Notes: generated by a model from the letters alone, not told the origin. DNA of 64,000 nt from Spirochaetaceae bacterium (GCA_965224705.1 OZ245056.1:96001-160000), one strand, 5' to 3'; shown: positions 9,012 through 62,561, counted from the first letter of the stretch. Made by a program: numbers and translations.

Positions 9012-9055
9012 AAACACAGGAATCCGGTATAATCCGTTCAGGATAAGGAATTTTC

Positions 9056-9892: not shown

Positions 9893-9911
9893 ATGGGAAT
9901 TGGGGCGTAAC

Positions 9912-10038
9912 GGCCGCGCTGTGCCAAAGTAGTTGTCACACAAGTTAAGTCAATGTAGGAGGTGACAACATGCGGCGGTACAGTGTTCAATTTAGGAATA
10001 CTATCTTGCAAAAGATGATCGGTCTGGAGGAACAATGA
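9912..10038 (+). mobile_element. Probable IS3-family left-end remnant
   Basis: 29-bp segment shared with 18511-18539 (28/29 identical), then AGGAGG and a 22-codon ORF MRRYSVQFRNTILQKMIG resembling IS3 OrfA N-termini. Confidence 0.5.
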
Positions 10039-10523: not shown

Positions 10524-10594
10524 CTCGAATGCTATTTCAATGTATATCACCTATTCATCAACAACGTAAAACAGCTGTTGATGCGCTCCGGGGA

Positions 10595-29702: not shown

Positions 29703-30054
29703 GAATGCTGCTTCGCTGATCCTGTAGGCCTGTCCCTTTCGAGGTTCTCGGAGATGCCCCGGGACAGGGCTGCCACGGACTCCATTTCCGCCCTCAGGAC
29801 TCCCAGTGCCCGGCCGATTCCCGATACAAAGCCGCCGACACTTTGAGAGGCACGGATCAGCGCGTCCATTCGCCGCAGGCTGGTCTCAGAAACCTCGCCA
29901 ATGGCGGTGCTGTTTTCCCTCGATCTGGATTCCGAGGGAAAAAATCCGGCAACTCAGATTATGTTTAATGAAGACGCTTCCGGACTCATTGTATCAGTTT
30001 GACCACGATACGGATTCAGGGGTAAATATTGACCAATCTTTTTAAGCTATGTAC

Positions 30055-44118: not shown

Positions 44119-44123
44119 ACAAA

Positions 44124-45561: not shown

Positions 45562-45840
45562 TTACTGTTTTTTTGTTGGAGTCGTCGGCTTCGCTGTTTG
45601 GTGGTCTTGTGGAAGTCTACTTGCGTAATCATTCACAATTAAACCTCCAATTATACTAACCCCCAAAGTTACAATGATACCCCAAAGTATTTTCCTAAAA
45701 CGACGCATCAATTTAAAGGGCAAAATATCAAGGGTGCAGTTGTTTGGGTGCGTAAATTTTTCGAACAAGAAGCGTAGTTGTTCTTCCAGGTACTCAGCGG
45801 TGGTTTGTTGGACGAGTGTATCTTCGGTGTAATCGTTCAT
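45562..45840 (-). pseudogene. Duplicated hsdR 5' end fused to an unrelated hydrophobic tail
   Basis: 45784-45839 matches 43385-43440 at 54/56; product starts MNDYTEDTLVQQTTAEYLE. Confidence 0.75.
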
Positions 45841-47600
45841 TTGTCCGGCCTCTCAAATCTCAATCCAAGCAAACTGCCAGAAGGCGTTGCATCAGAAAGT
45901 TTAAGCCGAACATAATCTCCGAATTTGAAGTCATCTGAAAAGTCAGATGATGGAATCATATCAGAATTAATTGTACAAATATACTGACCGCCGAGTGTTG
46001 TTGATATTTCATGTGCTCGCTCAAATGCAAGCGCACGCTGGCGAGCATCAACAGAGTCGTACATCAGAGTATCGTGAATAAGAAAATCGATACCTGAGCG
46101 ACTCTCCATTTGTAGTTGAAGTACCGCGAGGTCAAAGCAGAAAATTTTCATCTTCTCAATTCCCTCACTGCCACTTCGTTCAATATCTACTTTATATTTA
46201 TAACCAGTCTCTCCTACATCAATCACGAGTTTTCCTGGAGATTTATATAAAGCTTGCGAATGTTCGTTGAAAAGCCCGACAGCTTTCGACCATATTTCCC
46301 GCCTCTGTTCGTGATCGATTTCCGCTGTTCTTACAAGCTCAACTTTAGCAACCTTTACATCTCTTTTCGTAGTTTTAAGATTCTTCATCTCACGCAACCG
46401 CGCTTGAATTCTTTCTAACGAACCTTGTAAAACCAAATGCCGTTCTTGGAGCTTTGTCATTTCTTGAAGAGCACCGTGGGTTTTTAGGATTTGCATCACC
46501 TCGGCGCGCTCGTCAGTAAGTTCATTTATTCTCAACTTTCGGTCGCTGATCGCTTTTTGTATTCTTGAGATTTCAGTAGATAAGAAATCTCGACGGTTAG
46601 TGATTATCGCCTTATGAAACGTTCTAGCTTCTTCCATCGTTCGTTTGACAGCATCAGGGAATACCAATCCGGATTCCTGGTATAACTTATCAAGAGACAT
46701 TGTACCGGGTGGTTTTTCATCAGCGATGGATTCTTCATACCGTGACAGACGACGGCGATCAGAAACATTGAGGTTGGCTAACGAATGTATTTCTTTAGTA
46801 AGTTTATCAGCATCCTTTTGGATGGATTCGTACTGTGGATGGACCTTGAATGAATCCAAAGCGATCTTTGCGGCTGAGGTTTGCTGTTCCAGTTGAATTC
46901 GCTGCGTTTCCAACTCTCCTACTGTTCCGACAGCTCTTTCCATTGCACCGGTCTTAATCGCTTTTTCGATGGCTTTGACGCCTTCTTCCTGGTCTTTTAG
47001 TCCTTGCCATATTAAAGCGTTTTCCCAATTCATACCAAGGAGATATGCGGTGTGTAGCTGGATATCCCAGGTTATTTGATGGCGAAAATGACGGAATGGA
47101 CTCGTGTATGCATCAGGTCCTCTTCGAATGAAGTATGAAACCAAGCTTCTAAAACTTGGTTTATAAGCGTGCTGATCTGCGGACCGAGGCAGTCCAAAAA
47201 GAGTCCGACCAAGCAATTCTCGCCATCGTTCTATCTTGAAAACATGCTCACCGGTTTTCTCATCAACGTCGGGTTGTTCCGGCCAATTAGCTGTGTTTCC
47301 TTCTATGACGATACGACTGTGCTCTTCCACCGATCTGGTGACCTTTACGCGAGAACGGTTGATGGTGATGTCAACCGTGAAAGACCAATTGCTCAGCGGT
47401 TCAATAATCAGGCCGGATCCTTTTCTCGCACGACTTCCAAGGCAAAAATCTATGATTTCCAGCAATGTTGATTTACCGAGACCATTACGAGTATCTTTTT
47501 CGGAAGAGCTTTCAGTGCGATCCGCAAGAATAACATTGAGCCCACTGGAAAATTGTACAGTATGGAAAGAAGATTGGTTCGCTGTGACGCTGTGGATCAT
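45837..47600 (-). CDS. SMC-like ABC ATPase (DUF2326-like), ABC-3C/Lamassu LmuB-like
   Basis: RNGLGKST Walker A, central coiled coil, GSEG..KMKIFCFDL, FLIHD..DSVDARQ, QYICTIN. Confidence 0.88.
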   Translation of the reverse strand: MIHSVTANQSSFHTVQFSSGLNVILADRTESSSEKDTRNGLGKSTLLEIIDFCLGSRARKGSGLIIEPLSNWSFTVDITINRSRVKVTRSVEEHSRIVIEGNTANWPEQPDVDEKTGEHVFKIERWRELLGRTLFGLPRSADQHAYKPSFRSLVSYFIRRGPDAYTSPFRHFRHQITWDIQLHTAYLLGMNWENALIWQGLKDQEEGVKAIEKAIKTGAMERAVGTVGELETQRIQLEQQTSAAKIALDSFKVHPQYESIQKDADKLTKEIHSLANLNVSDRRRLSRYEESIADEKPPGTMSLDKLYQESGLVFPDAVKRTMEEARTFHKAIITNRRDFLSTEISRIQKAISDRKLRINELTDERAEVMQILKTHGALQEMTKLQERHLVLQGSLERIQARLREMKNLKTTKRDVKVAKVELVRTAEIDHEQRREIWSKAVGLFNEHSQALYKSPGKLVIDVGETGYKYKVDIERSGSEGIEKMKIFCFDLAVLQLQMESRSGIDFLIHDTLMYDSVDARQRALAFERAHEISTTLGGQYICTINSDMIPSSDFSDDFKFGDYVRLKLSDATPSGSLLGLRFERPDK

Positions 47601-47824
47601 ACCTCCCCCCTATTGATCAAACCATTCTTTAGATTTACGACACCGGTGATGTAGAGGAGGTCGAGCGCCAAAACGAATCTCTCATACGTCCCCACAGCGT
47701 GGTTTTCCCGAACTTTTTCCCATAGGCTTGTAATCGTTTGCGATTTTTCGAGGTGCGTCAATAGCACGCCACCGATGCCCAGCAATGCTTGTTCTTCCGA
47801 GATGTGTTTGGATGGTAGAATCAT
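47597..47824 (-). CDS. ABC-3C middle component (LmuC-like)
   Basis: 75 aa, MILPSKHI..ALLGIG..FVLALDLLY; 4-nt overlaps with both neighbours. Confidence 0.8.
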   Translation of the reverse strand: MILPSKHISEEQALLGIGGVLLTHLEKSQTITSLWEKVRENHAVGTYERFVLALDLLYITGVVNLKNGLINRGEV

Positions 47825-48594
47825 TTTTCAAACACCTCGCAAGCCTCGAAGAGGTGTATCAGCACAGCCAGCCCGGCAGAACGTTGCGCTTGTCGCTGAA
47901 ACCCTTGTTGCGCAAATCGACACATTAATTCGAAAAGCTCACCACCTTTGCCGCCATTTTTTTTTATACGCCAATATTCAGAAAGAAATCCTGCTTTGAG
48001 TCTCTCAGGAAAATCCTGGTCAGTTTGTGCAACGCTTTCGATGTACCTTGCTACTTCATTGGCAACCCCAAGCCCCATGGCAATAACACCTCGCGCATCG
48101 GCATTGAGGTCGTTTTTCTGAATTTTGTCTTCGACTTTCAGTAGCGAGTAATCGTTTGTAACCGCAGACGGCAGAATTGTAGAAGCCCATTGAGTAGCCT
48201 CCTGTAGTTCTGCGAAACTGACATCTGCGAAAGCGTCAATCATTGCCTGGCGGACTTTTGTCTCATGTTCGGTCTTGATCAGATGCAATCTAGAAACTGG
48301 ATAATCGTCTTCACCTTGGGGGATTGCATCGATCACCGTATGGCAGGCTGGGCATAGGTATATAAGATTGTTGTAGTGATTACGCTCATCATCTGTCATA
48401 TTGGAATCGTAACGTGCCGACCTCTGTTTTTTCCCCTTGCCGTCATGTTCCCCAGCGATGTGAGCAGCCTCACCAATGTTTGTAGGATTTCCTGATGTGC
48501 TATCTGGCGTAAGCCGTTTTCCACAACCAGGTAACGCACAGAGATCTCCACTGCGATAGGCAAGTAACAGTTTGGTGGGATATGAAACGCTCAT
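47821..48594 (-). CDS. HNH-nuclease effector with ABC-3C C-terminal domain (LmuA-like)
   Basis: CALPGC, AAHI, NLIYLCPACHTVID; ends LFEACEVFEK. Confidence 0.85.
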   Translation of the reverse strand: MSVSYPTKLLLAYRSGDLCALPGCGKRLTPDSTSGNPTNIGEAAHIAGEHDGKGKKQRSARYDSNMTDDERNHYNNLIYLCPACHTVIDAIPQGEDDYPVSRLHLIKTEHETKVRQAMIDAFADVSFAELQEATQWASTILPSAVTNDYSLLKVEDKIQKNDLNADARGVIAMGLGVANEVARYIESVAQTDQDFPERLKAGFLSEYWRIKKNGGKGGELFELMCRFAQQGFQRQAQRSAGLAVLIHLFEACEVFEK

Positions 48595-49765
48595 ACTGCC
48601 ACCTCACCGTTCATCAGGCGTGGGAGTAGTTTATCTCTGGCACTGACAAGATGTTCGTTGATTAGTTGCAGTTTTTCTATCTGCTCGGCGACAGTACCTG
48701 CAAAATCATCGAAATGCTTCAAAAGACTCGCGGGGGGATGAAGACATCTAATCCGGTGCACGTCGTTTCGATTCAATGTAGGTACGGCCGCTCCCCCGTT
48801 GTATTGCTCAAGGTGCATTTCAGAGAGGAGGTGAGTTGCAAACAATGGCCCTATTTTCTTAAATTTCTTGACCCATAGAGCTGTATTTAGGGGCCAGAAG
48901 TCGCAAGGTACATACATCACTGTACCGAGTGCCCCTGAGCGGCCCGTAACAACACCGGGACCCTTGACCTTGGCCACGTTGTGATATCCGTTGATACCTG
49001 TTGAAGCATAAATCGGAAATAGGCCTTCCTTGCGTTGTTTTACAGGTAGGTCGAAACCTCTCTGTAACGTGAGAAGCTCGCCCAGCGGCGGTTTACTCCA
49101 CCCTTCCGGCACACCATCTCTAATCTTCACATGCTCATGACCGGGAAACCGGAGATGAACAAACCACTCTTTGTAAAGCAGCCGAGCCGCCTGCTCCAGC
49201 AACTGAATTCGCCGTCGGTTGTTTTCAATTAGGTCATCATAGGCGGAGAGTACAGTCGCGATATCGCGTTGCTCCGAGAGTGATGGGCAAGGAACCTCAA
49301 AATTACGAAGAACTGTTAGATTGATATGAGGCACGCCAGATGAAGACACATAATTCTGAATCTTCTGGATCGCTTGATTACTTGAGAAGTAGTAGTAGAT
49401 GAATTGACGGTCAGCTTTTGAAGGATCAACAGTCATTTTCATCTGGCTTGAGATACGACATATCTATCAAACCGACTGTCTTCGGGAATTATGGAAACCT
49501 GTCCAAGTGTACCCCTCTGCGTGAAAACAAGGTCAAGTGGGGCAGCAAGATTTCCAAATAAGTCTTTCCTAACCTTCTCTTCTGAGACGAAAACGAAGTC
49601 ATCATCATCAAGATATCGTCCGCTGTTCAGGTTGCTACCGCGTATAACGGGAACACCATCGTCTAGATAATCTCGAGAGGTAAGTTTCGAACCAAAAGGA
49701 CCACCAACCAATGCGTACGGAACATCCGCTGCCAACGTTTCCAATTTGACCGTAGGCCAGCTCAT
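48591..49765 (-). pseudogene. hsdS: Type I specificity subunit, frameshifted
   Basis: GGPFGS TRD, P.LSEQ..I..LSAYDDLIENNRRRI, RDKLLPRLMNGE. One base is missing at about 49449 (caa-gcc-aga-tga vs caa-agc-cag-atg). Confidence 0.9.
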
Positions 49766-51870
49766 ACCCCCAACTCCTCAAAATTCTTCTTTATCGCCGC
49801 CGCAAGATTCACCGCCTCTGCGTTGAGATCTTCAAGTTCAACATGTATTTCACGCATGGCCTCTTCAAAATCGAAATCCTCGTCTTCCTCTTCGGGTGCC
49901 ACACCCACGTAGCGTCCCGGCGTCAGTGACCAATCGTTGGCTTCAATTTCGGCTCGGCCGACCAGTTTGACAAGGCCTTCCACATCGCAGAGTTTTGCTT
50001 CGGGGAAGCGTTCGGTGAGCCAGTGGACTTGTCTCCAGAAGTAGCGAACCTGCTTTAGCTGTTCAACAGCAAGGCTTCGCGCTTCATCGGCCATTTTGCG
50101 GACTTTGGTGATCTCTTTTCCAGACCAGGAAGCGCTCTCCCGTGCAGCGCATTGGTTCACACAGGTTTCGATGAGCCTGGTTGCGATCTTGAAGAGCAGA
50201 TCCGTTTGCTTCACCAGATTTCTACTGGACTCTGCAAGGGTTGACAGTCGGTCCACGGCTTTTTTGAGTTCGCCGTTGCTGGTTTTCTGCTTTTTCCAGG
50301 CGGTCTGTTGTTTCGTTAATTCGGAATTGAAGGCTTCGACATCCATCGTGAAAGCCGGGATGGCCGTGTTGAATTCGGACCAGGCTTCCGAATGGGCACC
50401 ATCTTTACCCAGAGTCTTGATGAAGGGATTCACGGCCTTTTTCAACGATTCCAGAGAGGATGAGAAATCCGGCAGGGGCGTGGTGCGGTCAACATCCCGA
50501 GCCTGGAAGCAGCCCTTAGATTCGGCAAGCATTCGTCGACAATAGCCGCTGACTATGTCGAGGTACTTCTTCGTCTGGCCGCGATGGAGGGCGACAATCG
50601 AGAGAATATTCTGCTCCTGCTCGGGACTGAAGTCGTAGATTTTGCGCGTGACCTTTCGGTATATGTTTCGCCCATCGATCATCAAGACCTTGCCCTGATG
50701 CTGTTTTGGCTTATCCCGATTCAAAAACCACAGCTCACAGGGCACGGTACGGGTGTAAAAGAAGTTGGAACGAATGGCGATCATCACATCCACATCGCCA
50801 GACTCGATCAGCTTCTGCCGCACCTTGGCTTCATCGCGTCCGGCGCTGGAGGCCTGGGAAGACATAACAAATCCGGCGCGGCCCTTTTTGTTTAGATAGC
50901 TGTAAAAATAGCTGATCCACACATAGTTGCCGTTGGAAACCTTGTCTTTCTTGTTCACGCCGGGAAGCCCAAAGGGTAGACGCGGATCGGTTTTCACTTT
51001 GTCAGCGTCAATCTCATCGACATTGAATGGTGGATTGGCCATCACATAGTCGGCCTTGCCGACCAACTTATGGGGATCCTCATAGTAGGTGATGGCTTTT
51101 TTGATATCGCCTTCAAGGCCGTGAACCGCCAAATTCATCTTGGCCAAGCGAATCGTGGTGGCGTTCTTTTCCAAGCCCCGAAACGTGAGTTGTTCGGTTG
51201 GACTCAGTCCCTGCTCTTCCACAGTTCGGGCGCTCTGGACAAACATTCCGCCGGAGCCGCAGGCCGGGTCGAGAACAGTGCCCCGTTCGGGGTCCAAAAC
51301 ATGAGCGATAAGCGATACCAGAGAGACCGGCGTGAAGAATTCACCACCATCGTGGGCCTTTTGGTCGGCAAACTGAGTAAGAAAATACTCGTAGATACGG
51401 CCAAAGACATCTCCAGAGATTTTTTTCAGTTCATCCGGGTTGAGCGTGCGCAAAAGCTGACCAAGGACCTGATTGTCCAGTTCCTGATATTCACTCTTGG
51501 GCAGCACCCCGCGAAGGTTCTCATAATCTTTCTCAATGGATTCCATGGCGTTTATGATCGCTTTGGCGCGGTCTTTGTTGTCAGGAAGAGATACCAGCGT
51601 GTCGAATTGTGCTTTTTCTTGCAGGAAAATAGCGCCTTTCTGGGAAAAATCCTCTTTTGTCAGTGCCCTTGTTTTTCCGCTGCGTTTCGGCAGATTGGCT
51701 TCGATTCCTGTCTTTACCATCAGATATCGGCTGTAGGCATGGCGTAGAAACACAAGGCCCATGACTGGCAGAAAGTATTCATTGCTGGCATAGTTGGAGT
51801 TGGCCCGCAGGGTATCCGCTGCATTCCAGAGCCGTTTTTCGATTGCTTCAATATGTTCCAGTTGCGCCAT
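49762..51870 (-). CDS. hsdM: Type I methyltransferase subunit
   Basis: LWNAADTLR, GEFFTP, DPACGSGG, NPPF, SLTPGRYVG. Confidence 0.95.
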   Translation of the reverse strand: MAQLEHIEAIEKRLWNAADTLRANSNYASNEYFLPVMGLVFLRHAYSRYLMVKTGIEANLPKRSGKTRALTKEDFSQKGAIFLQEKAQFDTLVSLPDNKDRAKAIINAMESIEKDYENLRGVLPKSEYQELDNQVLGQLLRTLNPDELKKISGDVFGRIYEYFLTQFADQKAHDGGEFFTPVSLVSLIAHVLDPERGTVLDPACGSGGMFVQSARTVEEQGLSPTEQLTFRGLEKNATTIRLAKMNLAVHGLEGDIKKAITYYEDPHKLVGKADYVMANPPFNVDEIDADKVKTDPRLPFGLPGVNKKDKVSNGNYVWISYFYSYLNKKGRAGFVMSSQASSAGRDEAKVRQKLIESGDVDVMIAIRSNFFYTRTVPCELWFLNRDKPKQHQGKVLMIDGRNIYRKVTRKIYDFSPEQEQNILSIVALHRGQTKKYLDIVSGYCRRMLAESKGCFQARDVDRTTPLPDFSSSLESLKKAVNPFIKTLGKDGAHSEAWSEFNTAIPAFTMDVEAFNSELTKQQTAWKKQKTSNGELKKAVDRLSTLAESSRNLVKQTDLLFKIATRLIETCVNQCAARESASWSGKEITKVRKMADEARSLAVEQLKQVRYFWRQVHWLTERFPEAKLCDVEGLVKLVGRAEIEANDWSLTPGRYVGVAPEEEDEDFDFEEAMREIHVELEDLNAEAVNLAAAIKKNFEELGV

Positions 51871-51874
51871 TGTT

Positions 51875-52036
51875 ATTCGTTCTCCATGCTTCCCCATCGT
51901 TCGCAGCAGTTCTTCAATCTTCTTCAACGCGAGGGGCAGCGATTTTGCTTTTCCATTTCCCCGGCGAGTGATGGTTGGAAACGTCAGCCGGGTTTAGCCG
52001 CGAGTTTTTCCTGGGTCAGGTTCGTTCTTTCTCTAA
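51875..52036 (-). pseudogene. Xre-family HTH regulator remnant upstream of hsdM
   Basis: LRERTNLTQEKLAAKPG / frameshift / TFPTITR..NGKAKSLPLALKKIEELL. Confidence 0.65.
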
Positions 52037-52037
52037 G

Positions 52038-52187
52038 CCGTATTTCTCACGAATAAAGTGAAAAAAGAGGTCTCATCTCTGATAGTTATTAGTAGATATA
52101 GAATTAACCTATCAAACAAAGAACCTTTTATGAATACAGAGTGTAGCTCAAAACAATTGATCTTGCAAGATCTTGGGAAGTGGGAAA
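52038..52187 (+). mobile_element. IS1380-family left-end remnant
   Basis: ccgtatttctcac end plus MNTECSSKQLILQDLG; homologous to the reverse complement of 28065-28200. Confidence 0.65.
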
Positions 52188-52530
52188 TGTCAACACCGGA
52201 CTAGAATTGCAGATTATCACCGAGTTATACTGCAGTCTTCGGCATGTTTTTTTAAAGTCAACGACTCCTATTTTCATTCTAACCTTCATGCAGTATGAAT
52301 CTCCCTTAAGACTAACTACATGAAAATGGTGAAGAAGTCTGTCTAAAGTAGCCGTCGCAACTGGCGCCATTTGCCATAATTTCATCCAACTTCCCGAAAA
52401 CTTTATTACTCGTTAATACTATGGAACCATGTTCATGTCAAGTGCCGATGAGCTGTGAAGAGAAGCGATCTGTCCAACATTTAGATTTTCATAACCGACC
52501 TCATCAATTAATAGTACATGTGACTTTCAA
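52188..52530 (-). mobile_element. IS21-family right end with istB fragment
   Basis: LLIDEVGY and ATLDRLLHH..KGDSY; TGTCAAC terminus at 52188. Confidence 0.8.
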
Positions 52531-52649
52531 AACATTTTTCCTAAATTGAAAGAGGTAGTATTCCTACATTGGGAGAGTAGCTTTCGTTATATTTAAAAAG
52601 TGTTTAGGTAAAAATATGCCTGATGAAAGTCATTAAAATATCGTTAGAG

Positions 52650-53234
52650 TCAAACTTCATTCTGAGTTAATTGAGGTGATAAGTTTCTCAATCTATCTAC
52701 TTCAATATTCTTTATCATCAGCCTATAGAATCTATTGTAAATAATCTTCTTTTTTTCTATATAATCCTTTGCACTAATAGAATAATTACTATTTATAATA
52801 ATTTTTTGCTTCTCTTGAGAGTAATCTTTTGCTACTTTTGGGAATTGTTGCAACAAATTTCTAAAGCATACCAACTCTTGCCAGTCTTGAGATTTGTACT
52901 GGGTTAGATGAATATGAAAAAAATGTACTTCTTTCTTACCCTTCCAAAGGATTAGCCTGTTTGGTAGCATTTCCAACAATTCTTCTATCAAAAAATAATC
53001 ATTTTCAATCAATTTTTTCTTAATACTGATTTTTTGTGGTTCGAACGTGTATCCAATAACAATATCAATAATTGGTTTTGCGTAAATATTGGGTACTGCC
53101 GTACTACCTACATGCTGGATTAAAGCATAATCAAGCTCCAATAGCTCAAATAGTTTTGATTGTTCTTTTCCAAATTCTCCTTTCCAATAATCAAGATGAT
53201 TTTTTTCAAGTGTAACAGTCCTATCTAAACTCAT
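52650..53234 (-). CDS. GrpB/UPF0157 nucleotidyltransferase-fold protein
   Basis: IQHVGSTAVP..AKPIIDI, HIH, FRNLL..P..AKDY...K, Y...K. Confidence 0.9.
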   Translation of the reverse strand: MSLDRTVTLEKNHLDYWKGEFGKEQSKLFELLELDYALIQHVGSTAVPNIYAKPIIDIVIGYTFEPQKISIKKKLIENDYFLIEELLEMLPNRLILWKGKKEVHFFHIHLTQYKSQDWQELVCFRNLLQQFPKVAKDYSQEKQKIIINSNYSISAKDYIEKKKIIYNRFYRLMIKNIEVDRLRNLSPQLTQNEV

Positions 53235-53253
53235 TTTTAACTCTCCGCAAAAA

Positions 53254-54006
53254 TTAGTGTTGCATTCTTCCTGTCAATACAACAGGTTCATCAGATTTAA
53301 GCTTGTATTTCCTGGATTCCGAGTACATAAAGTCTTTCATATGTCCAAACGGCTCAATTTTTTCTACCTGAGGATGAAAAAAATATCTGTGATATAAATT
53401 CATTTTATATTGCTCAAAAACTGGAACTGAGTAAGAAAGAAAATTTTTCCAAATAATGAATGTCGGCTCATGATGCAGTCGATATCTCAGTTTTCTATCC
53501 GCATAAAAATCATGACATACATATTTACCCAGTTTTGAAGATTGAGAAGATATTGTATTGTTAACCTGACGATAACGCTCAACCTTTATACTTTCAAAAA
53601 TATCCTGGTTATACCGGTAGTACTTTGGGAATCCTCCTCCAAACAAACAAACATCTCCCCCAAAATTCAACATCTTCAATACTATTGCTGTAAATGGATA
53701 TACAATGCTGTATTTATGTTGCAAAATAGGTAGCTCTTTTTTGCAAAATTCATCAAGAAACATGTTTCTAATTGTTAATTTCAAATTCTTGTTATGTAAA
53801 AATAATTTTAAGCTTTTTTTCTCGACAGTATCCAAATCTGGGTAATAGTCAACAAATATGCACTCAAATTCTACTCCTAGGCATAGTAAACGATAGGCTA
53901 AGAACTGACTATCGACACCTCCTGATAAGAATAGTGTTATTTTCCCATGTTTTTGAATCTCAAGGAGTTTCTGATCTACGTATTCAAGCCATGGGCAATC
54001 ATTCAT
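53254..54006 (-). CDS. PP-loop (adenine nucleotide alpha-hydrolase-like) enzyme
   Basis: LFLSGGVDS motif near the N-terminus; no QueC zinc motif and no glutaminase domain. Confidence 0.7.
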   Translation of the reverse strand: MNDCPWLEYVDQKLLEIQKHGKITLFLSGGVDSQFLAYRLLCLGVEFECIFVDYYPDLDTVEKKSLKLFLHNKNLKLTIRNMFLDEFCKKELPILQHKYSIVYPFTAIVLKMLNFGGDVCLFGGGFPKYYRYNQDIFESIKVERYRQVNNTISSQSSKLGKYVCHDFYADRKLRYRLHHEPTFIIWKNFLSYSVPVFEQYKMNLYHRYFFHPQVEKIEPFGHMKDFMYSESRKYKLKSDEPVVLTGRMQH

Positions 54007-56311
54007 TTCTTGTATCTAATTGCCATTCTTTTATGAGTAAATCCAGGTATTGTAAAGTACGTTTGTTCTCTGGATCATTACACTTTTCATAGATATTACG
54101 TAATTCTTTAATCCTTTTTTTAATATCCGGGATTATCTTTTTAGGGTTGGTGTGATATAAGTGTCCAAAGATATACTTATGCAAAGGATGAGTTTCTTTT
54201 TTCAAAACTTCCAGAATCTTTTTTTGCAACTCTTTGTCGAAAGCTCTATAGAATGGTTTTGGTCTTTTCGGGTTAATGGGGTCCTGTTCATCTTCATTTG
54301 TAGTGTGCTTAGGGTTGGAATCAAGCCATTTGAAATATAAAAATTTGGTTTTGGCTTGATAATCCGAATTGTAGAGTTGGATGGATGCATCATAATACAA
54401 GGTAAGAACTCTCTGATATGTTGCCATTATGGATTTCATATCCTTATTTTCATTTTCTTCTATGCGCTTGAGGTTTTCAAGAAATAGTTTTGACTTCTTC
54501 TTATTCTGTTCGTCCATTAACACATAGAAGAAACGCTCTAGGCAAAATAAAAAAGCTCTTCGGAGAGATTCAGGAACTTTTGTGTAAATATCAGAAATTG
54601 CTTTCTTCTTATTTTTTTTGGGTTCATCGCTTAATGAAAATTTCTCATGATACAAAAGTGAAGCGATAACCCATTCATAAACAGAGTCATTGAATCTATC
54701 AATAGAAATACCATCATCTGGTTTACCACTATCTGGTTGCTCATCAAGAATTGAAACATACAGAGCTAACGCTAACAGGATTTTTTGACTTTTCTTTTCT
54801 AATTTTATTCCATCAGAATAATACAATGGATATGATTTGCTCCCCTCTATATCATTTATGTAATCATAAACCTTTCTTTGGTCTTCTCTATTATTACTGA
54901 GTTCCTGCACGATATTTGGGTAAGTTTTCCATAGGGTCTTCGTCATATCCAATACTTCTTTACAGTGTGTTTTATAATCTATACGGAGTCTAATAACTTC
55001 TAACTTCTTCTTATGATTCTCCCATTTCTTTATGCATGTATCAATGCTTGTGTTCTCCGCTATTCCCGAGATTAAAATATTGCCTTTCATCATATTGGGC
55101 AAGTCTATATTGTCTGTATTAACTATCCAGTGAAGCGACTTAAGTGCATAGACGGCATAATAATTCTTCAAGGTATTCGTAAACTCATCATGATTTTTAT
55201 CAAGATTATTATTAGATAAGTTAAAACACTTATATATATTATTATTGCCTTGGCTACAAAGGTTTTTTTTATAAAACTCTAGCCTCTTCCTGAGTAGTCT
55301 ACTTGCGCTATCAAAGTCCACTATGATGACCGTTTTGTTAAGAGGAGACATTGGATTCAGAAGTGTATTGGCTACATCAAACATACTGTAAAATTCTGGT
55401 ACTCCATTATCATGATCACTGAACTCTGTACGCTTGAATTTTATCTCATCAGCATCATTTCTGTTATCATTATGGAGTTTGTATTGATATTTATTTTTAG
55501 ATTTGCAACAGTTGAAAACTATCTTGTAGAAATTCTCATATAGAACATAACCATCCTTACTCAGGTAATTCAAAGGAATTCTTTTAATTGGCAAATCCTT
55601 AAAATGCTTATTAGCTTTTGTAGGCTTCTTCATTTCTAGCGCAGTCTCTCCCAATTGATATAGATTAAAATTATCATGGTTTTCACTACGTGCTAGTTTT
55701 TTGAGAAACGTGACATGAGGCTCATATCTTGTGAGGGATGTACCTATAAACAAGCATGTTTGATTGTTTGTAGTTAATAATGGATCATGAAATTTAGCCA
55801 ATTTATCTGATATTTTTTCAGAGATTTTTTTCCTTGTATTAATCAGACTAGATGGACTTAGTATAGTTCCATGCAGATAAATCAAACTACGGATTTTGGG
55901 ATAAATAGGTCTAAAAAAATCCTGATTTTCTAAATGCTCATCATTTTCATAAGTCATTGGATAGAATGGTTTGAAACCATCCCCTTGTTCTCCAGATTGG
56001 GAACCTGCTCTGAACCTAATGGCTTGTATTAAAGTGAGTAAAGTCAAATCATGATTCGTTGTTACTATATATTTCCAGTTCAATGACAGAAAATCCAAGA
56101 CATTTTTTCCTCGCTCAAGCAGATCGGCTGTATTGCTTACATTAATAGCAGTTTTACTTAATTCTCCTGCTTCCTCTAAGTAGTTTTCCAATTCAGACCA
56201 AAGAGGAAACCCGAACATCTTCGAAAACCCAGCCCCAAGCCAAAGCACGGCCTGCCCTCCTTCGATAGATTGGATCAAAGTATTCATTCCCTCTTGTGAG
56301 ACATTTTCCAT
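53999..56311 (-). CDS. SIR2-like domain protein with ~500-aa unknown C-terminal region
   Basis: LWLGAGFS..FPLWSEL, IVTTNHD, IYLHG, LFIGTSL. Confidence 0.85.
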   Translation of the reverse strand: MENVSQEGMNTLIQSIEGGQAVLWLGAGFSKMFGFPLWSELENYLEEAGELSKTAINVSNTADLLERGKNVLDFLSLNWKYIVTTNHDLTLLTLIQAIRFRAGSQSGEQGDGFKPFYPMTYENDEHLENQDFFRPIYPKIRSLIYLHGTILSPSSLINTRKKISEKISDKLAKFHDPLLTTNNQTCLFIGTSLTRYEPHVTFLKKLARSENHDNFNLYQLGETALEMKKPTKANKHFKDLPIKRIPLNYLSKDGYVLYENFYKIVFNCCKSKNKYQYKLHNDNRNDADEIKFKRTEFSDHDNGVPEFYSMFDVANTLLNPMSPLNKTVIIVDFDSASRLLRKRLEFYKKNLCSQGNNNIYKCFNLSNNNLDKNHDEFTNTLKNYYAVYALKSLHWIVNTDNIDLPNMMKGNILISGIAENTSIDTCIKKWENHKKKLEVIRLRIDYKTHCKEVLDMTKTLWKTYPNIVQELSNNREDQRKVYDYINDIEGSKSYPLYYSDGIKLEKKSQKILLALALYVSILDEQPDSGKPDDGISIDRFNDSVYEWVIASLLYHEKFSLSDEPKKNKKKAISDIYTKVPESLRRAFLFCLERFFYVLMDEQNKKKSKLFLENLKRIEENENKDMKSIMATYQRVLTLYYDASIQLYNSDYQAKTKFLYFKWLDSNPKHTTNEDEQDPINPKRPKPFYRAFDKELQKKILEVLKKETHPLHKYIFGHLYHTNPKKIIPDIKKRIKELRNIYEKCNDPENKRTLQYLDLLIKEWQLDTRNE

Positions 56312-56316
56312 AGTAA

Positions 56317-57408
56317 CTACTCCTTTCTGATTGGCGCATTTCTCTCAAAAGCATTTTGATTGCCTTGATAACACCACTGATTACTTGAGGTCCGGGATTT
56401 ATCTATTGGAATAATTTTAATTGAGGAGACAGGATTCTGCTTATTGGTAATCCGAGGGTTTATTTCCATGTTTTTCTCATAATGGAACAGGCCGTTCAGC
56501 TGCTGGCAAAACTTTTTAATTGCCTGCTCTAGTTTATTTTCATCGATATCTTTAATTGACAGATTTGCACTTCTATTTCTTCGGCAAAAACTCAAGGTGC
56601 CGTCAGGCTGAATAAGCAATGTAAAAACACCCTCTGGGCAAGGAAATATTGGGCATTTTCGACAAAATTCTAAATAGGTCGCGGTGGTTTGTTTTGTTTT
56701 TATTTTTACTGAAATATTTTGATATTCAAAATATTTCATCGTCAAGCCCAAACCCAAGCCTTCCTCTTTAATCAAAGTGCATCCTTTTTTCAGTAACATC
56801 TGCTCAACCTCCTTGACTGTCTGATACTGATGATGGAAAAATCCTACTCCATCATACTCATGTTCTTCCAAATCACATAGCTTCAAATCACATTGATTCA
56901 CCGAGCAAAATTCAAGAATGTTCAAAACATCTTCCTGGTTATATTTCATCAATACCATAAGTATTTCTATCGAAGCTTTATTTTTTTTTAATTCAACAAT
57001 ATTTTTGACAACTTCTTCCAGTATAGAAGTACTCGTTATTGCGCTATATTTTTTTTCATCTAATGAATCCAGGCTTATCCTTAACCTGGACAATTGTGCT
57101 AACTTTTTAGGTTCTATCAGTTTTGAGCCGTTTGTATTCAACTGAATTTCTATTGATTCGGATATCAATTGCGTCATGAGGTTTAAGTATGAGTTGAATT
57201 CAGAGTGAAGTGTTGGTTCCCCTCCGGTAAATCGGAACATTTTGGCTCCCTGCTTAATCAGTGACCCTATTATTTTATCTGCCAGATTAAACGGCAACTC
57301 TCCAGATACGCCCATATGAGATTCGCCCATAGGAGGACAGTAGGCACAAAATTGGTTGCATTTTGTATTTATAACAACTGTTATCATTGCATTTATTAAA
57401 TTGGTCAT
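56317..57408 (-). CDS. Radical SAM enzyme, MoaA-like fold with C-terminal Cys cluster
   Basis: CNQFCAYC, RFTGGEP, NTNG, ISLDSL; CRKCPIFPC..DGTLSFC. GAGGAG RBS before ATG 57408. Confidence 0.88.
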   Translation of the reverse strand: MTNLINAMITVVINTKCNQFCAYCPPMGESHMGVSGELPFNLADKIIGSLIKQGAKMFRFTGGEPTLHSEFNSYLNLMTQLISESIEIQLNTNGSKLIEPKKLAQLSRLRISLDSLDEKKYSAITSTSILEEVVKNIVELKKNKASIEILMVLMKYNQEDVLNILEFCSVNQCDLKLCDLEEHEYDGVGFFHHQYQTVKEVEQMLLKKGCTLIKEEGLGLGLTMKYFEYQNISVKIKTKQTTATYLEFCRKCPIFPCPEGVFTLLIQPDGTLSFCRRNRSANLSIKDIDENKLEQAIKKFCQQLNGLFHYEKNMEINPRITNKQNPVSSIKIIPIDKSRTSSNQWCYQGNQNAFERNAPIRKE

Positions 57409-57410
57409 AT

Positions 57411-58421
57411 TCAAAACTCCTCTGCCAATAAATTGTCAATTTTTGGCCTTGGCAACTGGTTCATTCTGGCAGCGACAAACGAGCCATTATGTGTACCTCC
57501 ATTGTAACTTGCCACTGCTTGCTCTAATGTTGTAGTTAACGAGTCCTGAGGGATATAATTGGTACTCTCATAAACTTTTTCAGAAATGTATGAATGATTG
57601 AACAGAGTTAATTCCCAACCAATACTCATAGAAACAATTTCTTCGAATGTAATGGCTTTGCAGGTAATTCCATCGGATAATCCAAGAATTTTTGAAAATG
57701 TTTCAAAATAGTCAAAACACAAAAAACTCTGGGGACTGCAAACATTGAATACTTGTTGAATACATTTAGCATTGCCAATTACACGGCATATCACTTTAGC
57801 TAAGTCACTGATCGAAATGAAAGAACTTAAAACCTCTCCTTTCCTATATAAATATATGCTTTGACTGTTCAACAATGTTGTTGCCAACCTAACATCTCTA
57901 TTGTGCTTTGGTAAACACCCGGCCAAAGTCTTTTCTCCTAGGACATGATAGGGCCTTAAGATAGAAAAATTTGCCTTTGACTCTTCTATCCAATAGTGCT
58001 CCATTGAAATCTTTCCATCAGCATAACCTCCCAACACACCCATATTCGATGTATTTCGATTTTCATCAAAAGGAATCTTTGACTCATCTGATTTCCTATC
58101 TCGACAATATACCAATGTGGAAGACAAAAGTATATACTGTTCCGATTGGCCAAATAATAGGTGAGTAAACTTGGCATGAGCATGGTTTTTGGATATTAAG
58201 TCAATCACAGCCAATAGTTTTGGGTGGTTTTTATTGATTAAAGCGGCCTGTAAGGCATAACTCTCAGAGAATATATCTGCTTCATAGAAGATTTGGTTTT
58301 TCGCAGAGCTTGGTTTTTGCTTATCTAGTATAATGACAAAGAACCCATTGTTGACAAGTTCAACGCAAATACTCCCGCCTATAACACCACTTCCCCCAAT
58401 AACTAAAACCCTGTTATTCAT
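57411..58421 (-). CDS. NAD-dependent epimerase/dehydratase (extended SDR)
   Basis: VLVIGGSGVIG, LSS..VY, YADGK (YxxxK), ILRP..V.G, FISISDLA, VFNV. Confidence 0.88.
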   Translation of the reverse strand: MNNRVLVIGGSGVIGGSICVELVNNGFFVIILDKQKPSSAKNQIFYEADIFSESYALQAALINKNHPKLLAVIDLISKNHAHAKFTHLLFGQSEQYILLSSTLVYCRDRKSDESKIPFDENRNTSNMGVLGGYADGKISMEHYWIEESKANFSILRPYHVLGEKTLAGCLPKHNRDVRLATTLLNSQSIYLYRKGEVLSSFISISDLAKVICRVIGNAKCIQQVFNVCSPQSFLCFDYFETFSKILGLSDGITCKAITFEEIVSMSIGWELTLFNHSYISEKVYESTNYIPQDSLTTTLEQAVASYNGGTHNGSFVAARMNQLPRPKIDNLLAEEF

Positions 58422-58425
58422 TGTT

Positions 58426-58740
58426 CTGAATCCGTATAAGAATAAAAAACAAAGGCTCAATCTTTTATATATAATAAATTACGCAAAAATTCAATTAACC
58501 CGGAAGGTGAGCCTTATGAAGATAGATACTACCACAGAAGCTTTAACCCGTACAGGGGGAATCACACTGGCAGGAAAAATATTTAAAGAAATTGGACTGG
58601 AATTCACATCCGATACCATACTTTCGGGCGCAACAAACAAATCATAAAGACAATGACCAGACTTCCAAAGGGATGAATGGTTATTCTCCCATCTTCAGCT
58701 ATGTGGTAAGGAAGGTTATATGATGGACTGTGAACTAAAC
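58426..58740 (+). mobile_element. IS1380-like transposase fragments
   Basis: MKIDTTTEALTRTGGITLAG at 58516 and GYSPIFSY/GKEGYM at about 58680; most of the gene is missing. Confidence 0.55.
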
Positions 58741-58837
58741 TTTAATGGAAAATTACAATATTTGATTAAGCACATTTTGTCTGAATGATCTTCTCGTAAT
58801 CCACTGGAGAAACCATGTCGATTATAATACACCTCAA

Positions 58838-60059
58838 TATGTGTCATGCCAACCATTAAGCAACAAATAAATACGCTTGAGTTTAATTCGAGCTTGATCT
58901 ATAGAGAATTGCCAATCGACGGTGGCGTTCTTGTTATTTCTGTGTTCTTGCCATGCCCCAGATTCAAATGAAACCTCCTCTATCTTGTCTATTCTTCTGT
59001 TAAGGCACTGTCCCATCAATACATTCAACTCTATTTCAGCCGTGTTAAGCCAGCTACCGTGTTTCGGAGTATAGACAAACTCAAATCTGTTCAGAAGACT
59101 TTTTGCTTTTTCGGGTGTGTACGCCTCGTAAAAGGCGCCGGGAACATGAGTGCCGTCATCATCCATGACCAGAATTTTCTTTCAGCCTTTTCGTACAGCG
59201 AAGCTATCTCCTCCATGAAAAACGCCCGGTCGGCTTTCGTTTTCCTTTCCGTGATCTTCACGTATCGTTTACCGGCAAGAAGTTCATTCGCCATAAAGAC
59301 ATTGCACACCCCACATCGTTCGTATTCGCAGTCATAACGGTATGGTCGTCCTTTACCCTGGGCTATCGGTATTCTGGTCTCTCCAATAAGCTGCGTGGGA
59401 GATTCGTCCATACAAACTACCAGGAACGCAGAGTTATACGGCCTTTTGTACACCCCCAGGACTTTTTCCATTGCAGCCGCAAAATCAGAATCCTGTTCCG
59501 GGGGGATCACCCAACCCTGACTTTTCCAGGGTTTGATTTCGTTTTTTTAATACTTTTCTTACAGTTTCATAGGATACGCTTTGCACGTAACCCAACTCAA
59601 CAACTCTGTCGGCCAGCAGCCTTAACGACCAACGGGTAAAGCCATGCGGCGGTTCTGAACAGCTAAGAGCGACAAGATGAGCTTCAAAATCCCCATCCGC
59701 TTTCCTGTCATACACACGTTTGCCTTTATGACCGTTCAAGGCTATCTCCATTCCCTCCTCTACAAAACGCTTTTTTACGTGGTCTATACGCCTCATGCCA
59801 ATATTCAAGATATGCGCTATTTCTTCGTTCGTGCTTTTATGCGTCTGGTAATCACCTCTGTCGCAGGAGGCAGGATCAAGGCGTTTATCAGTTTTCGCGA
59901 TCTATGGACTCCTCTGGACTTTATTCCCTGTAAATACTGACGTTCGTCTTCACTTAAGGTCACCCGGTATCTAACTTGCATTACTATTCCCTCTATATAG
60001 ATAAGATGGGGATAGTTTACTTCATTTTTTGCGTTGTTTTAAGGTTGACATGACACGAG
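58838..60059 (-). mobile_element. IS630-family element, degenerate
   Basis: IRs gtgtcatgccaacc / ggttgacatgacac; RWSLRLLA, CMDE, YTPKHGSWLN.AEIE; A7C slippery site at about 59541-59548; extra frameshifts. Confidence 0.88.
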
Positions 60060-60352
60060 GACTCTAAGACTTCGAGGCAATTTCTGATGTTTTTACTGAT
60101 GCAAGGCGGCCTGTCCGCCGACAGACAGGCAAAAACGGAGTGCAACTGAGCTGCGTGAGTATTCTGGCAGCTCAGCAGCAAGATATGCGAGTCTATGGAC
60201 TCGCATCCTGAGAGAGTGCCGAGCGATAGCGAGGAAAAGCCGCCACGGATGGCGGCGAAAACGAACGAAGGCGGCTCTCCAGAAGCAAGCAGGAGGCTTG
60301 CTTCTGGAGAGAAGGGCAGAAATCGAGCCGTGAGGCGGAAGTCCGACGGGCT
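60060..60352. mobile_element. MITE family A, copy 3, expanded by hairpin modules
   Basis: Ends align with 21530-21675; interior carries four extra palindromes. Confidence 0.75.
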
Positions 60353-60530
60353 TCTGGGGAAGTCGGGGTGGGACGGACAGAGGGGAAAAGGTTCGCCGGG
60401 CTCAACAACCTCAGTTCTGTCCGCTATCTCATTGGGTGAGGAGGGTGTGTGAAAACTCTGGGGGATCGACTCGGCAAATCCGGGAAGTATCCTGTGCATT
60501 TATAGAAATTTTGGCGGATTTCAGATAAAA

Positions 60531-62561
60531 TCAGGGAACGGACAGGAGTCTGGATCGGAATGCAGGATCGGGTGCCGTTGTATTCTCAGGATACTCCGGG
60601 ATATCCAGAAAAAACACTTCATCTCCAGTTGAGATGAAATCAAATTCACCATTCCGTATGAATTTACCCTCACTCAATGCCTCCGAAATATCAGTGATAT
60701 TGACACTTCCAAGATAATCAGAAACTGGATAATCAATTCCCTCCTCTGTAACAGCGGGACGTGCGGCCCCCTTTCGAAGAACCACAAGAGATGCATCCTT
60801 CTCAATACCCTGCCACCGGCCCTTATTGAGAAGCAGAGTATCTCCCTGCACATCCAGTATGGATATTTTCATTGGGATGAAGGAGGATACATCCTGAACG
60901 AGCAGGTTCAAGCTGTCCTTAACTTTTTCCTGACCCGTCCTCAACTGTGTCACCTGGGTCACAACCTCCCCTGTTCTGCCAAGGTAGACTGTTGCAGCTG
61001 CACTGAAACTGCGATCCGTTTCGGCGAAATTGAGTAATATGAAGTAATCCACTGTCTCACGAGCCGTTCTAAATGCCTCGGTATAGCTGCTAACTTCCCG
61101 TACTCCAGGTCGAATTCCCCCATCAAGATTGACTACGGAAATTTCTGATCGGGCATCCAGCAGATTTGCAGCATGAGATGCCACGGCCATACCTGCCCCC
61201 TCATGATTATGAAACAATTGCTTCTCAAGAATAATAAATACTCCGACTTTCCAGTCTGAGGGAGGAAAGTTCCATGGGTCGTCTATACCCCAATCCCCGG
61301 CAAGACTGCTGATTTCAGAATGCTCAAGCAGATTGAGATACTTTTGAACAGAAGACTGTCTTTCAGAATCATTTTGAAGCTCAACTGTAATCGCATATAA
61401 CTCATCTCGATATTTCCCGGGGAAACCCATGAGACGAATCAGATTGGCATATTTCAACCAGTGTTCCACGTTGGTACTGTCGATTTTCCTGGCCCATTGG
61501 TAAGAAACCAATGCCTGCCTGTAGTAATAGGATTCCTCAAGCCTTTTTCCCTTATTGATATGCCAGGAGGCCGCATCTGTACGAAACTCCATCAGGCCAT
61601 CGATAGCCTGCACCAGAGGTGCTTCTCTGAAGATTCTTGTCACCTCATCATCAGGATTCTGTCTCAGCAGAAGTCTCAAAAAACCCTGAGCAGTCGATTC
61701 CTGTCCCAGATCCCTGTAGATTCTGGCTTTGAGGAACAGCAATTCCGAATCCTCATCACCTGGGATGGATTCCAGGTGGGCAAGAGCAGCAGCAGGATCT
61801 CCCCGCCTGAGAGCCATGGAAGCATTGAGAATAGAAATACGTCTGTAACGTCCATCATGGGGCCCCTGAAGCATTGCCCTGGCATGATCAAGGTGTTCGG
61901 CCACTTCATCCCACTCGTCATACAGAGCATGGTGTTCAGCAGCCTGTATCCTGAGATGTAAATCATTGGGATACAGCCTGAGAGCTTCTGTTAAAATGTT
62001 CTCTCCCTGAGTTTTTTCTCTGGCATTATCATGAAGTATGATCAGCTGCAGCAGGACTCGCAGGTTTCCCGGAGAGTATTCGAGACTGCGATTATAGGCT
62101 CTGTCCGCCAGATCCCTCCTGCCCTGTATCGCATAAACCTCTCCAAGACCCTGGTTTACCTCTGAATCATACGGTCTTCTTGTCAATAAGTCAGTATACA
62201 GAGCAATCGCTTCATCATATCGAGCAAGAGCTGTGAGGATTCTTGCCTCAATAATAATTCGTCGTTTATCCTGGAAGGTATAGCGTTTGGCTGCTGTTAT
62301 TTCCTTGTATGCTTCTGAATACTCACCCAGAAGATATAAGGCCTCCGCCATGCTCAAACGGGCATCAGCATACGATGGATTAAGTATGATGGCCATCCTG
62401 AATGACTCAATGGCTGTGTAGTAATCATCCGATTCCATCGCCTGTTTCCCAATTCGATAGAGATCACGTTCCCTGATTTTTTCATTGGCATATAATTGAT
62501 CTGTACTGGAAAAAAAAGAAATCAAACAGAGAATAAGTAAGTGCAATTCTTTTTTATTCAC
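60531..62561 (-). CDS. Exported tetratricopeptide-repeat protein
   Basis: Signal-like N-terminus after GTG 62561 and multiple TPR-like repeats. Confidence 0.85.
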   Translation of the reverse strand: MNKKELHLLILCLISFFSSTDQLYANEKIRERDLYRIGKQAMESDDYYTAIESFRMAIILNPSYADARLSMAEALYLLGEYSEAYKEITAAKRYTFQDKRRIIIEARILTALARYDEAIALYTDLLTRRPYDSEVNQGLGEVYAIQGRRDLADRAYNRSLEYSPGNLRVLLQLIILHDNAREKTQGENILTEALRLYPNDLHLRIQAAEHHALYDEWDEVAEHLDHARAMLQGPHDGRYRRISILNASMALRRGDPAAALAHLESIPGDEDSELLFLKARIYRDLGQESTAQGFLRLLLRQNPDDEVTRIFREAPLVQAIDGLMEFRTDAASWHINKGKRLEESYYYRQALVSYQWARKIDSTNVEHWLKYANLIRLMGFPGKYRDELYAITVELQNDSERQSSVQKYLNLLEHSEISSLAGDWGIDDPWNFPPSDWKVGVFIILEKQLFHNHEGAGMAVASHAANLLDARSEISVVNLDGGIRPGVREVSSYTEAFRTARETVDYFILLNFAETDRSFSAAATVYLGRTGEVVTQVTQLRTGQEKVKDSLNLLVQDVSSFIPMKISILDVQGDTLLLNKGRWQGIEKDASLVVLRKGAARPAVTEEGIDYPVSDYLGSVNITDISEALSEGKFIRNGEFDFISTGDEVFFLDIPEYPENTTAPDPAFRSRLLSVP

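Follow-up and report, generated by a model that had tools for sequence, protein, structure and literature searches.

Analysis of a 64,000-nucleotide (nt) stretch of DNA from a Spirochaetaceae bacterium (GCA_965224705.1 OZ245056.1:96001-160000; hereafter the window) identified a compact block of five minus-strand genes between positions 52650 and 58421. The genes, designated A to E in the direction of transcription, encode a short-chain dehydrogenase/reductase (SDR), a radical S-adenosylmethionine (SAM) enzyme, a protein with a SIR2 domain, a PP-loop protein and a GrpB protein. An original prediction, made from the sequence alone, had proposed the block as a candidate defence system. Comparison with other loci suggests that the SDR, radical SAM and GrpB genes form a conserved trio to which the SIR2 and PP-loop genes appear to have been added specifically in this lineage. 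We tentatively read the block as a mobile conflict cassette, foreign-looking, horizontally acquired and co-transcribed, in which the trio would tailor a nucleotide or a nucleotide-linked sugar, C would be an NAD+-consuming effector or sensor, and D would be an ATP-dependent adenylating partner.

Gene A lies at positions 57411-58421 and encodes 336 amino acids (aa) from an ATG start, a TTG extension reaching 58460. Gene B extends from 56317 to 57408 if started at an ATG, or to 57414 if started at a TTG (363-365 aa); C occupies 53999-56311 (770 aa), D 53254-54006 (250 aa) and E 52650-53234 (194 aa). Listing the open reading frames (ORFs) of the interval 52650-58460 reproduced the five intact, co-oriented ORFs of the original prediction and their spacing: 2 nt between A and B (the latter counted from its ATG), 5 nt between B and C, an 8-nt overlap of C and D, and 19 nt between D and E. 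Shine-Dalgarno-like (AGGAG-like) strings are found upstream of B, C and E. The catalytic motifs previously described are all there in the translations, and none of the five proteins contains a membrane-like segment. The GC content of the individual genes (0.297-0.369) is lower than that of hsdM (0.514), of the gene for a tetratricopeptide repeat (TPR) protein (0.462) and of the whole window (0.463), which bears out the remark that the block is richer in AT than its flanks (GC 0.30-0.37 as against 0.46-0.51). An Rfam scan of positions 51900-59900 yielded no riboswitch or other credible RNA, promoter and terminator scans of the operon region gave results no better than with shuffled sequence, and a repeat search detected no terminal inverted repeats bracketing the five genes.

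Contigs from public sequencing runs were aligned to positions 50500-60700 of the window. One run from another study (X3) contains an identical contig of 7,604 nt, which may come from the same strain. A second run, a mollusc metagenome (X7), contains a diverged copy of the block in the form of four low-depth contigs that tile positions 52650-58424. The first (929 nt) covers 52650-53452, that is, E and the end of D, with 78 differences; the second (306 nt) covers 53436-53741, within D, with 47 differences; the third (2,478 nt) begins at 53735 and comprises the start of D followed by C; the fourth (2,496 nt) covers 56189-58424, comprising the start of C, B and A, with 176 differences. Identity amounts to about 92% over A and B and to 90% over E; over D it is 85-89%. 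In length, the 2,478-nt contig is almost exactly what would be required to cover C, yet identity attains at least 80% only within 53735-54124 and three short islands. Gene C is thus collinear in the two copies and mostly less than 80% identical, except for residues 1-41, 182-192, 543-554 and 730-770; the islands at 1-41 and 182-192 hold the GAGFS and FIGTS motifs. Homology is bounded by the last base of the E stop codon and by a point 3 nt upstream of the A start codon, and the X7 contigs continue past both ends of the block into sequence unlike that of the window. Since the gene order is kept and homology ends at the borders of the outer genes, we conclude that the five genes move together as a block. 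The hsdM and TPR genes are also matched in X7, at about 95% and about 98.5% identity, respectively. We infer from these values that the block is more diverged than the host background and that C, outside its catalytic motifs, changes much faster than its neighbours. For B, 91% protein identity set against about 92% DNA identity of the contig corresponds to a rough ratio of nonsynonymous to synonymous substitution rates (dN/dS) of about 0.2, a figure to be taken as an estimate only.

The only other genome found to carry relatives of these genes is a metagenome-assembled genome (MAG) of Kangiella sp. The contig in question (locus L002) is of uniformly low GC content (31-41%). One strand encodes a haloacid dehalogenase-type (HAD) hydrolase, a 528-aa protein with no family, a sulfotransferase and a radical SAM enzyme; the converging strand carries a GrpB gene with an SDR gene directly after it. 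In BLASTP comparisons, A is 30% identical to this SDR over 324 aa (E = 7e-38), B is 41% identical to the radical SAM protein (E = 3e-73) and the E product is 36% identical to the GrpB protein (E = 1.6e-22), the three relatives all lying within 2.7 kilobases (kb). No counterpart of C or D was detected in L002 by BLASTP. Because this locus has relatives of A, B and E only, the conserved unit is the trio of SDR, radical SAM and GrpB genes. The notion of the five genes as a conserved set must therefore be abandoned, co-occurrence in the search of other genomes being confined to the trio. The control of the SIR2 protein by the nucleotide enzymes that was proposed with it is accordingly no more than putative. 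What holds of the original prediction are the intact motifs, the defence-type SIR2_2 family of C and the defence genes nearby. Two apparent traces of C in the Kangiella MAG were discarded. A SIR2_2 gene present elsewhere in the MAG bears no relation to C and is carried by a different contig, and a "TTN" string near the start of the 528-aa protein is not preceded by GAG and coincides with no SIR2 match.

Within the trio, the radical SAM protein is the most extensively documented. B matches the Pfam family Radical_SAM (PF04055) with an E-value of 1e-18 (68.5 bits, cut-off 29.5). It carries the CX3CX2C signature, with C19, C23 and C26 invariant in the family alignment, as part of an invariant motif near the N-terminus (CNQxCxYCPPMGE; B itself reads CNQFCAYC), and the C-terminus of the family bears a conserved three-cysteine patch (Cx3-4Cx4C). 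The best characterised relative is MoaA (NCBIfam TIGR02666, E = 1.2e-27; family profile against the Protein Data Bank (PDB), 1.2e-25), the alignment beginning at CX3CX2C and reaching the first cysteines of the auxiliary cluster at the C-terminus. B is nevertheless not MoaA (GTP 3',8-cyclase) itself: it scores 96.8 bits against an equivalog cut-off of 284 and has no Mob_synth_C (PF06463) match. Reading of the alignment further indicates that the residues found in the B family at the positions of MoaA Arg17, Arg266 and Arg268, which we take to be GTP-binding positions, are not arginines. Profiles for Mob_synth_C, MoaC (PF01967) and MoeA_N (PF03453) have no match in the closed 3.0-Mb genome, although each of the three matches 11 out of 14 control genomes. 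B must therefore act outside molybdenum cofactor synthesis, a pathway that the host organism as a whole appears to lack.

Models for the prokaryotic viperins (pVips) also match B (PADLOC, E = 8.3e-15) and its L002 relative (E = 3.8e-17). The likeness is that of a radical SAM protein from the viperin/MoaA neighbourhood situated in a defence island, and pVip offers the precedent of an antiviral modified nucleotide. However, B scores only 22.9 bits with the NCBIfam viperin model, whose cut-off is 450, and is not a pVip. Its matches to viperin (3.6e-5 and, in the PDB, 1.4e-8) are far surpassed by those to MoaA (1.2e-27 and 1.2e-25), and it further differs from pVip in the three-cysteine patch and in having SDR and GrpB partners.

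The B family is small. The protein search returned P0003 (91% identity, on a contig of 2,496 nt), P0004 (41%, from the Kangiella-MAG cluster), P0005 (37%), P0006 (43%) and P0007 (32%), below which come MoaA proteins of the ordinary kind (about 24-34%). A pattern was also run against one genome per species, 185,579 species in all; of the 23 stretches that it matched, three pass tblastn and a single one, L002, is a true member of the family. Metagenome contigs scanned in the same way gave at least 598 pattern matches and at least 138 radical SAM relatives; the best 80 of these at least 138 are all at most 36% identical to B, and at most 31% over the longer matches. When A, C, D and E were used in tblastn over 83 loci, A and E were found in L002 only, among the matches listed. 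Viral contigs contributed three weak, generic radical SAM matches and plasmid records two matches of MoaA grade. The Kangiella MAG has an ordinary MoaA elsewhere as well, and 68 of 101 genomes related to it match the B-family profile at E ≤ 1e-20; except for the MAG's own gene (531 bits), all of these score at most 119 bits and represent ordinary MoaA.

The other two members of the trio are assigned more directly. A has the features of an extended SDR, namely the GxxGxxG and YxxxK motifs (GGSGVIG and YADGK) and a match to Epimerase (PF01370; E = 3.5e-14, 53.3 bits, Pfam cut-off 20.9); residues G9-G15, Y133 and K137 are invariant with respect to the L002 SDR. We assign it to the nucleotide-linked-sugar type because a profile built from A and its Kangiella-MAG relative matches, in the PDB, GalE (4zrm, 6.7e-7), UDP-apiose/xylose synthase (6e-5) and ArnA (2e-4). 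The E product is a GrpB protein (PF04229, E = 8.9e-28, 97.9 bits, cut-off 25.5; PDB 2nrk, GrpB, E = 9e-12) with a GST motif followed by DID, both conserved in the L002 GrpB. The literature searched describes GrpB only as an uncharacterised domain of nucleotidyltransferase fold and as a domain fused to mycobacterial CoaE (PMC7288161).

These assignments, together with the partners of the trio in L002, bear on a different explanation, which we regard as a serious, if somewhat less likely, rival: that the genes are a small specialised-metabolite cluster, a single pathway to a modified nucleoside, nucleotide or nucleotide-sugar that would be an antibiotic, cofactor-like or cell-associated. The SIR2 protein would then supply or transfer ADP-ribose from NAD+, the PP-loop protein would amidate or ligate an adenylated carboxylate, and the Kangiella version of the product would be sulfated and dephosphorylated. 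Such a pathway would account for a constant trio whose partners have given way to HAD and sulfotransferase tailoring enzymes, for the resemblance of A to UDP-sugar epimerases and decarboxylases, and for the match of the B family profile to a nucleoside-antibiotic enzyme in the PDB, cytosylglucuronate decarboxylase (2.4e-10). All five products are predicted to be soluble enzymes with intact active sites, and pairs of a radical SAM enzyme and an SDR or reductase operate in the pathways of tunicamycin (TunB/TunA) and apramycin (AprD4/AprD3). However, no exporter, regulator, self-resistance gene or glycosyltransferase was found beside either locus, and both loci lie among defence, toxin-antitoxin and transposase genes. 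C is also an awkward member of such a pathway: it belongs to an immune-type family, has some 500 residues with no enzyme-like match, and diverges far more quickly than A, B, D and E, which is unusual in a pathway enzyme.

The N-terminus of C matches SIR2_2 (PF13289) with an E-value of 4.9e-6 (27.1 bits, cut-off 24.5; 30.2 bits in the whole-genome scan), and the motifs GAGFS (position 26), TTNHD (84), LHG (146) and FIGTS (188) are spaced as expected for the family. The characterised members of SIR2_2 are known as immune NADases. About 500 residues beyond the SIR2 domain match no family. The solved chains closest to C are those of ThsA (8wc0, E = 0.012) and KomC (E = 0.035), both weak matches, and the Cas7 matches returned by PADLOC (E = 0.015) are spurious. 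A word-indexed search of 5.8 billion clusters recovered C itself and nothing else; when 1.84 billion representatives were scanned exhaustively with HMMER, one SIR2 protein of 415 aa (E = 1e-4) was recovered besides C. C is absent from all 60 related genomes examined and present, among the 61 searched, in its own genome only; viral contigs contain no match for C or D. In ESM feature space, C lies nearest to SIR2_2 proteins 742-1170 aa long (scores 0.86-0.88), which we treat as a lead only. Single-sequence AlphaFold2 models of C and D are of very low confidence (mean predicted local distance difference test (pLDDT) scores of 34.4 and 35.0, respectively), as there are no relatives to align; the C-terminal region of C comes out as mostly helical, but in this very low-confidence model only (pLDDT 34.4).

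D is classified as a PP-loop protein of the ATP-pyrophosphatase type from its SGGVDS motif and from weak matches to models of QueC type: the PADLOC QueC model (E = 1.4e-4) over residues 20-78 and PHROG 1550, "QueC-like" (E = 1.6e-7), over residues 11-77. The PP-loop also aligns with GMP synthase. D reaches no Pfam cut-off, Pfam QueC not being reported at E ≤ 0.1; the word-indexed protein search found only D itself, and phage records contain no match at E ≤ 1. Its ESM-feature neighbours are hypothetical phage proteins, some with QueC or Asn_synthase (score 0.96-0.98), again a lead only. Residues 46-72 (positions 53791-53871) contain a QueF-like string (Pfam, 0.0097; NCBIfam, 0.002; PDB 5udg, 0.42). 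This likeness is probably due to chance, since the segment fits the PP-loop fold, aligning with GMP synthase as its second strand and helix. The SGGxDS motif and the weak QueC matches are reminiscent of the QueC-like proteins of QatABCD and of type IV cyclic-oligonucleotide-based antiphage signalling systems (CBASS). Unlike QueC, QatC and Cap9, D aligns over residues 11-78 only and shows no visible Cys-rich zinc motif, and the partner genes expected in those systems (QatA, QatB, QatD, CD-NTase, TGT-like) are absent from the locus.

Another reading is that the block is a composite, in which C alone, or C with D, is a stand-alone DSR-like defence gene lodged inside an independent trio, between B and E, and is co-transcribed with it incidentally and with no biochemical coupling. 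Such an origin would fit the arrangement of L002, where the radical SAM gene borders on the directly adjacent GrpB and SDR genes and nothing like C or D is present, as compared with the insertion of C and D between B and E here. Defence islands are known to pack unrelated systems tightly. Moreover, C is laid out like a DSR protein, with an N-terminal SIR2 domain and a long C-terminal region, and its feature-space neighbours are SIR2_2 proteins in the 742-1170 aa range. We nonetheless find a composite improbable: the X7 copy keeps all five genes in order with homology stopping at the outer borders, the 5-nt gap and the 8-nt overlap tie C to B and to D, and no DSR model matches C.

The statement that no named system has this combination of genes has held up. 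PADLOC, NCBIfam and Pfam assign the block to none, and the literature searched mentions neither GrpB with radical SAM nor SIR2 with radical SAM and PP-loop; the gene set is not described there. Partial likenesses exist. Kongming is reported (PMC13454610; bioRxiv 10.1101/2024.12.20.629578) to consist of nucleotide-modifying enzymes and a SIR2 NADase effector activated by a base-modified nucleotide. The block resembles it in placing a set of nucleotide enzymes beside a SIR2 protein, a likeness of genes only. It differs in that KomC, a protein of 264 aa, aligns with the 770-aa C over just 35 residues of the N-terminal GAG region (E = 0.035), and in that Pfam and NCBIfam find no adenosine deaminase and no HAM1-type pyrophosphatase among A-E. 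C recalls DSR1 and DSR2 in its N-terminal SIR2 domain, its long and fast-diverging C-terminal region and its defence-island setting; however, no DSR model matches it at E ≤ 0.1, its 770 aa fall short of the approximately 1000 or more of those single-gene systems, and it resides within an enzyme operon, translationally coupled to the PP-loop gene D. As to Thoeris, ThsA is the closest solved SIR2 chain, with aligned GAG, HG and FIG motifs, but Pfam finds no SLOG domain and no TIR protein ThsB, and no PADLOC Thoeris model matches any of A-E at E ≤ 0.1.

If the conflict-cassette reading is correct, the trio of A, B and E would produce a modified nucleotide from a nucleotide substrate, probably a purine nucleoside triphosphate or a nucleotide-linked sugar. 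B would initiate the sequence by radical chemistry at the ribose or sugar; the keto or ene intermediate so formed would be reduced or epimerised by A with NAD(P)H, and the GrpB protein would move a nucleotidyl group to or from it. C would act as an NAD+-consuming effector or sensor, as in Thoeris, DSR and Kongming, with its C-terminal region as the recognition part, and the target of adenylation by D would be a carboxyl or carbonyl group, either on the nucleotide product or on a protein. The outcome would be that replication of a phage or competitor is hindered by a nucleotide analogue or signal combined with NAD+ depletion. The chemical steps, the putative NADase activity of C and the coupling of the trio to the SIR2 protein are deduced from what is known of the families, from the structure of the operon and from its context. 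In particular, as the trio occurs without C and D, and C and D are almost without relatives, the link between the SIR2 protein and the nucleotide enzymes is one that we infer.

Several observations weigh against this interpretation. The SIR2_2 match of C exceeds its cut-off by just 2.6 bits, and PADLOC reports no DSR, ThsA, SIR2-HerA or other SIR2-system model for C at E ≤ 0.1. The identification of D depends mainly on a six-residue motif and on weak N-terminal matches. A demonstrated activity of GrpB was not found in the literature searched, and no infection sensor is recognised in the block besides the uncharacterised C-terminal part of C. In L002 the trio occurs without SIR2 and PP-loop genes and in the company of HAD and sulfotransferase genes, typical small-molecule tailoring enzymes, a partner set that fits a biosynthetic cluster as well as it fits the swapping of effectors. 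The comparative base, finally, consists of one other locus and fragmentary metagenome contigs. On balance, the tailoring or biosynthetic reading and the defence reading are about equally well supported.

The genomic surroundings also bear on the origin of the block. A fragment of an IS21-type IstB gene (positions 52128-52385, minus strand; PF01695, E = 6.2e-7, last 31 profile positions only) lies downstream of the operon, and a split IS630-type transposase remnant consisting of three minus-strand ORFs is found at 58834-59808 (DDE_3, 7.2e-8 and 2e-8; HTH_32, 1.1e-13). Directly upstream of A is a dispersed repeat (58425-58660, given no strand) that, besides its own locus, occurs in 12 partial copies of 76-91% identity in the same genome. 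It shows very high summed depth in metagenome contigs, has no Pfam match and bears no signature of the insertion sequence (IS) IS1380. Of the IS21, IS1380 and IS630 elements said to bracket the block, the first and the last are thus recovered, whereas the repeat takes the place of IS1380. This repeat holds whatever promoter drives the operon. Farther upstream, positions 60060-60360 correspond to another dispersed element, about 300 bp long, of which the same genome has at least 13 copies (84-93% identity) and genomes of the same genus have partial ones. A perfect 16-nt hairpin lies within it at 60275-60311, its summed depth in metagenome contigs is very high, and it looks like a miniature inverted-repeat transposable element.

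On the other side lies a type I restriction-modification (R-M) locus. Its hsdM gene is intact (PADLOC/Pfam, E = 6e-258), hsdS is split (48591-49442 and 49439-49765), and hsdR is in four ORFs (38813-43456), broken by an ISL3-family transposase that is itself in two ORFs (40588-41839). The decay ascribed to the neighbouring IS and hsd sequences is therefore apparent in hsdS, in hsdR and in the IS remnants, and spares hsdM. Two PADLOC candidate systems reside inside this locus: HEC-01A/B (43456-45416; AAA_21 and DUF4276 proteins; PADLOC, E = 1.6e-198 and 5.7e-98) and PDC-M68A/B (45837-48594; an HNH protein and a DUF2326/ABC-3C-type protein; E = 1.8e-87 and 1e-217), with a 92-aa ORF of no family at 45562-45840. 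While the R-M genes had been correctly recognised, the presumed Lamassu-like gene is better described as PDC-M68B (E = 1e-217), LmuB matching at just 9.5e-16. In the Kangiella MAG, TnpB and IS21-like remnants are found beside the L002 cluster, and the rest of the contig encodes HigB with a helix-turn-helix partner, an IetA-like AAA protein, an RNA ligase with an HD-kinase, PcfJ-like proteins and integrases or transposases. Positions 8796-10812 and 3912-7073 of L098 (Kangiella-MAG contig) hold three of these features: the RNA ligase, which lies beside a protein with HD and AAA_33 kinase domains in an RNA-repair-like pair, HigB with its partner, and the IetA-like protein, a double-AAA protein of 730 aa (E = 1e-32).

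Collinearity with the closest relative of the host (G009; 88-93% DNA identity) holds at 28321-29712 of the window and resumes from 60525 onwards. As the intervening DNA is of similar length and unrelated, the operon lies within a variable region of about 30 kb. The non-conserved stretch (29712-60525) also holds genes for glycerol kinase, glycerol-3-phosphate dehydrogenase-like proteins, a Crp-family regulator and a hybrid-cluster protein. These data make it most improbable that the genes belong to ordinary metabolism or to the envelope, whether as a route to nucleotide-sugars for a surface glycan or as a substitute cofactor pathway of the molybdenum cofactor or queuosine kind. That A is an SDR of the nucleotide-sugar type, B MoaA-like and D endowed with a QueC-like PP-loop speaks for such a role. 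Yet no glycosyltransferase, flippase or polymerase gene is nearby, the genome has no match for MoaC, MoeA_N or Mob_synth_C, the block was not found in the 60 related genomes (searched with the SIR2 protein), G009 has unrelated DNA across 30 kb, and the block has a foreign base composition and IS remnants on its flanks.

A more general form of the conflict-cassette reading, which we put forward as speculative, is that the trio represents the portable nucleotide-tailoring core of a new class of immune systems with interchangeable output modules. Its product would be a new modified nucleotide, serving as a chain terminator or as an alarm signal. The modules would be a fast-evolving SIR2 NADase and a PP-loop protein here, and the 528-aa protein, a sulfotransferase and a HAD hydrolase in the Kangiella MAG. 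Should this hold, it would provide the first function for GrpB proteins and reveal an offshoot of MoaA working outside molybdenum cofactor synthesis.

The general importance of the cassette is uncertain because it is very rare, being confined to its own genome, one diverged metagenome copy and one genome with the trio only. It constitutes a clean test case all the same: 5.8 kb of DNA, predicted soluble proteins and obvious active-site residues to mutate. If it proved to be a biosynthetic cluster of the nucleoside type instead, it would still point to unknown chemistry. If the conflict-cassette reading is true, the block would add to Kongming a second way in which bacterial immunity connects nucleotide modification with NAD+ depletion, one that employs radical SAM chemistry related to that of viperin and MoaA. 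For GrpB, a widespread family whose structure has been solved, the operon offers a first context.

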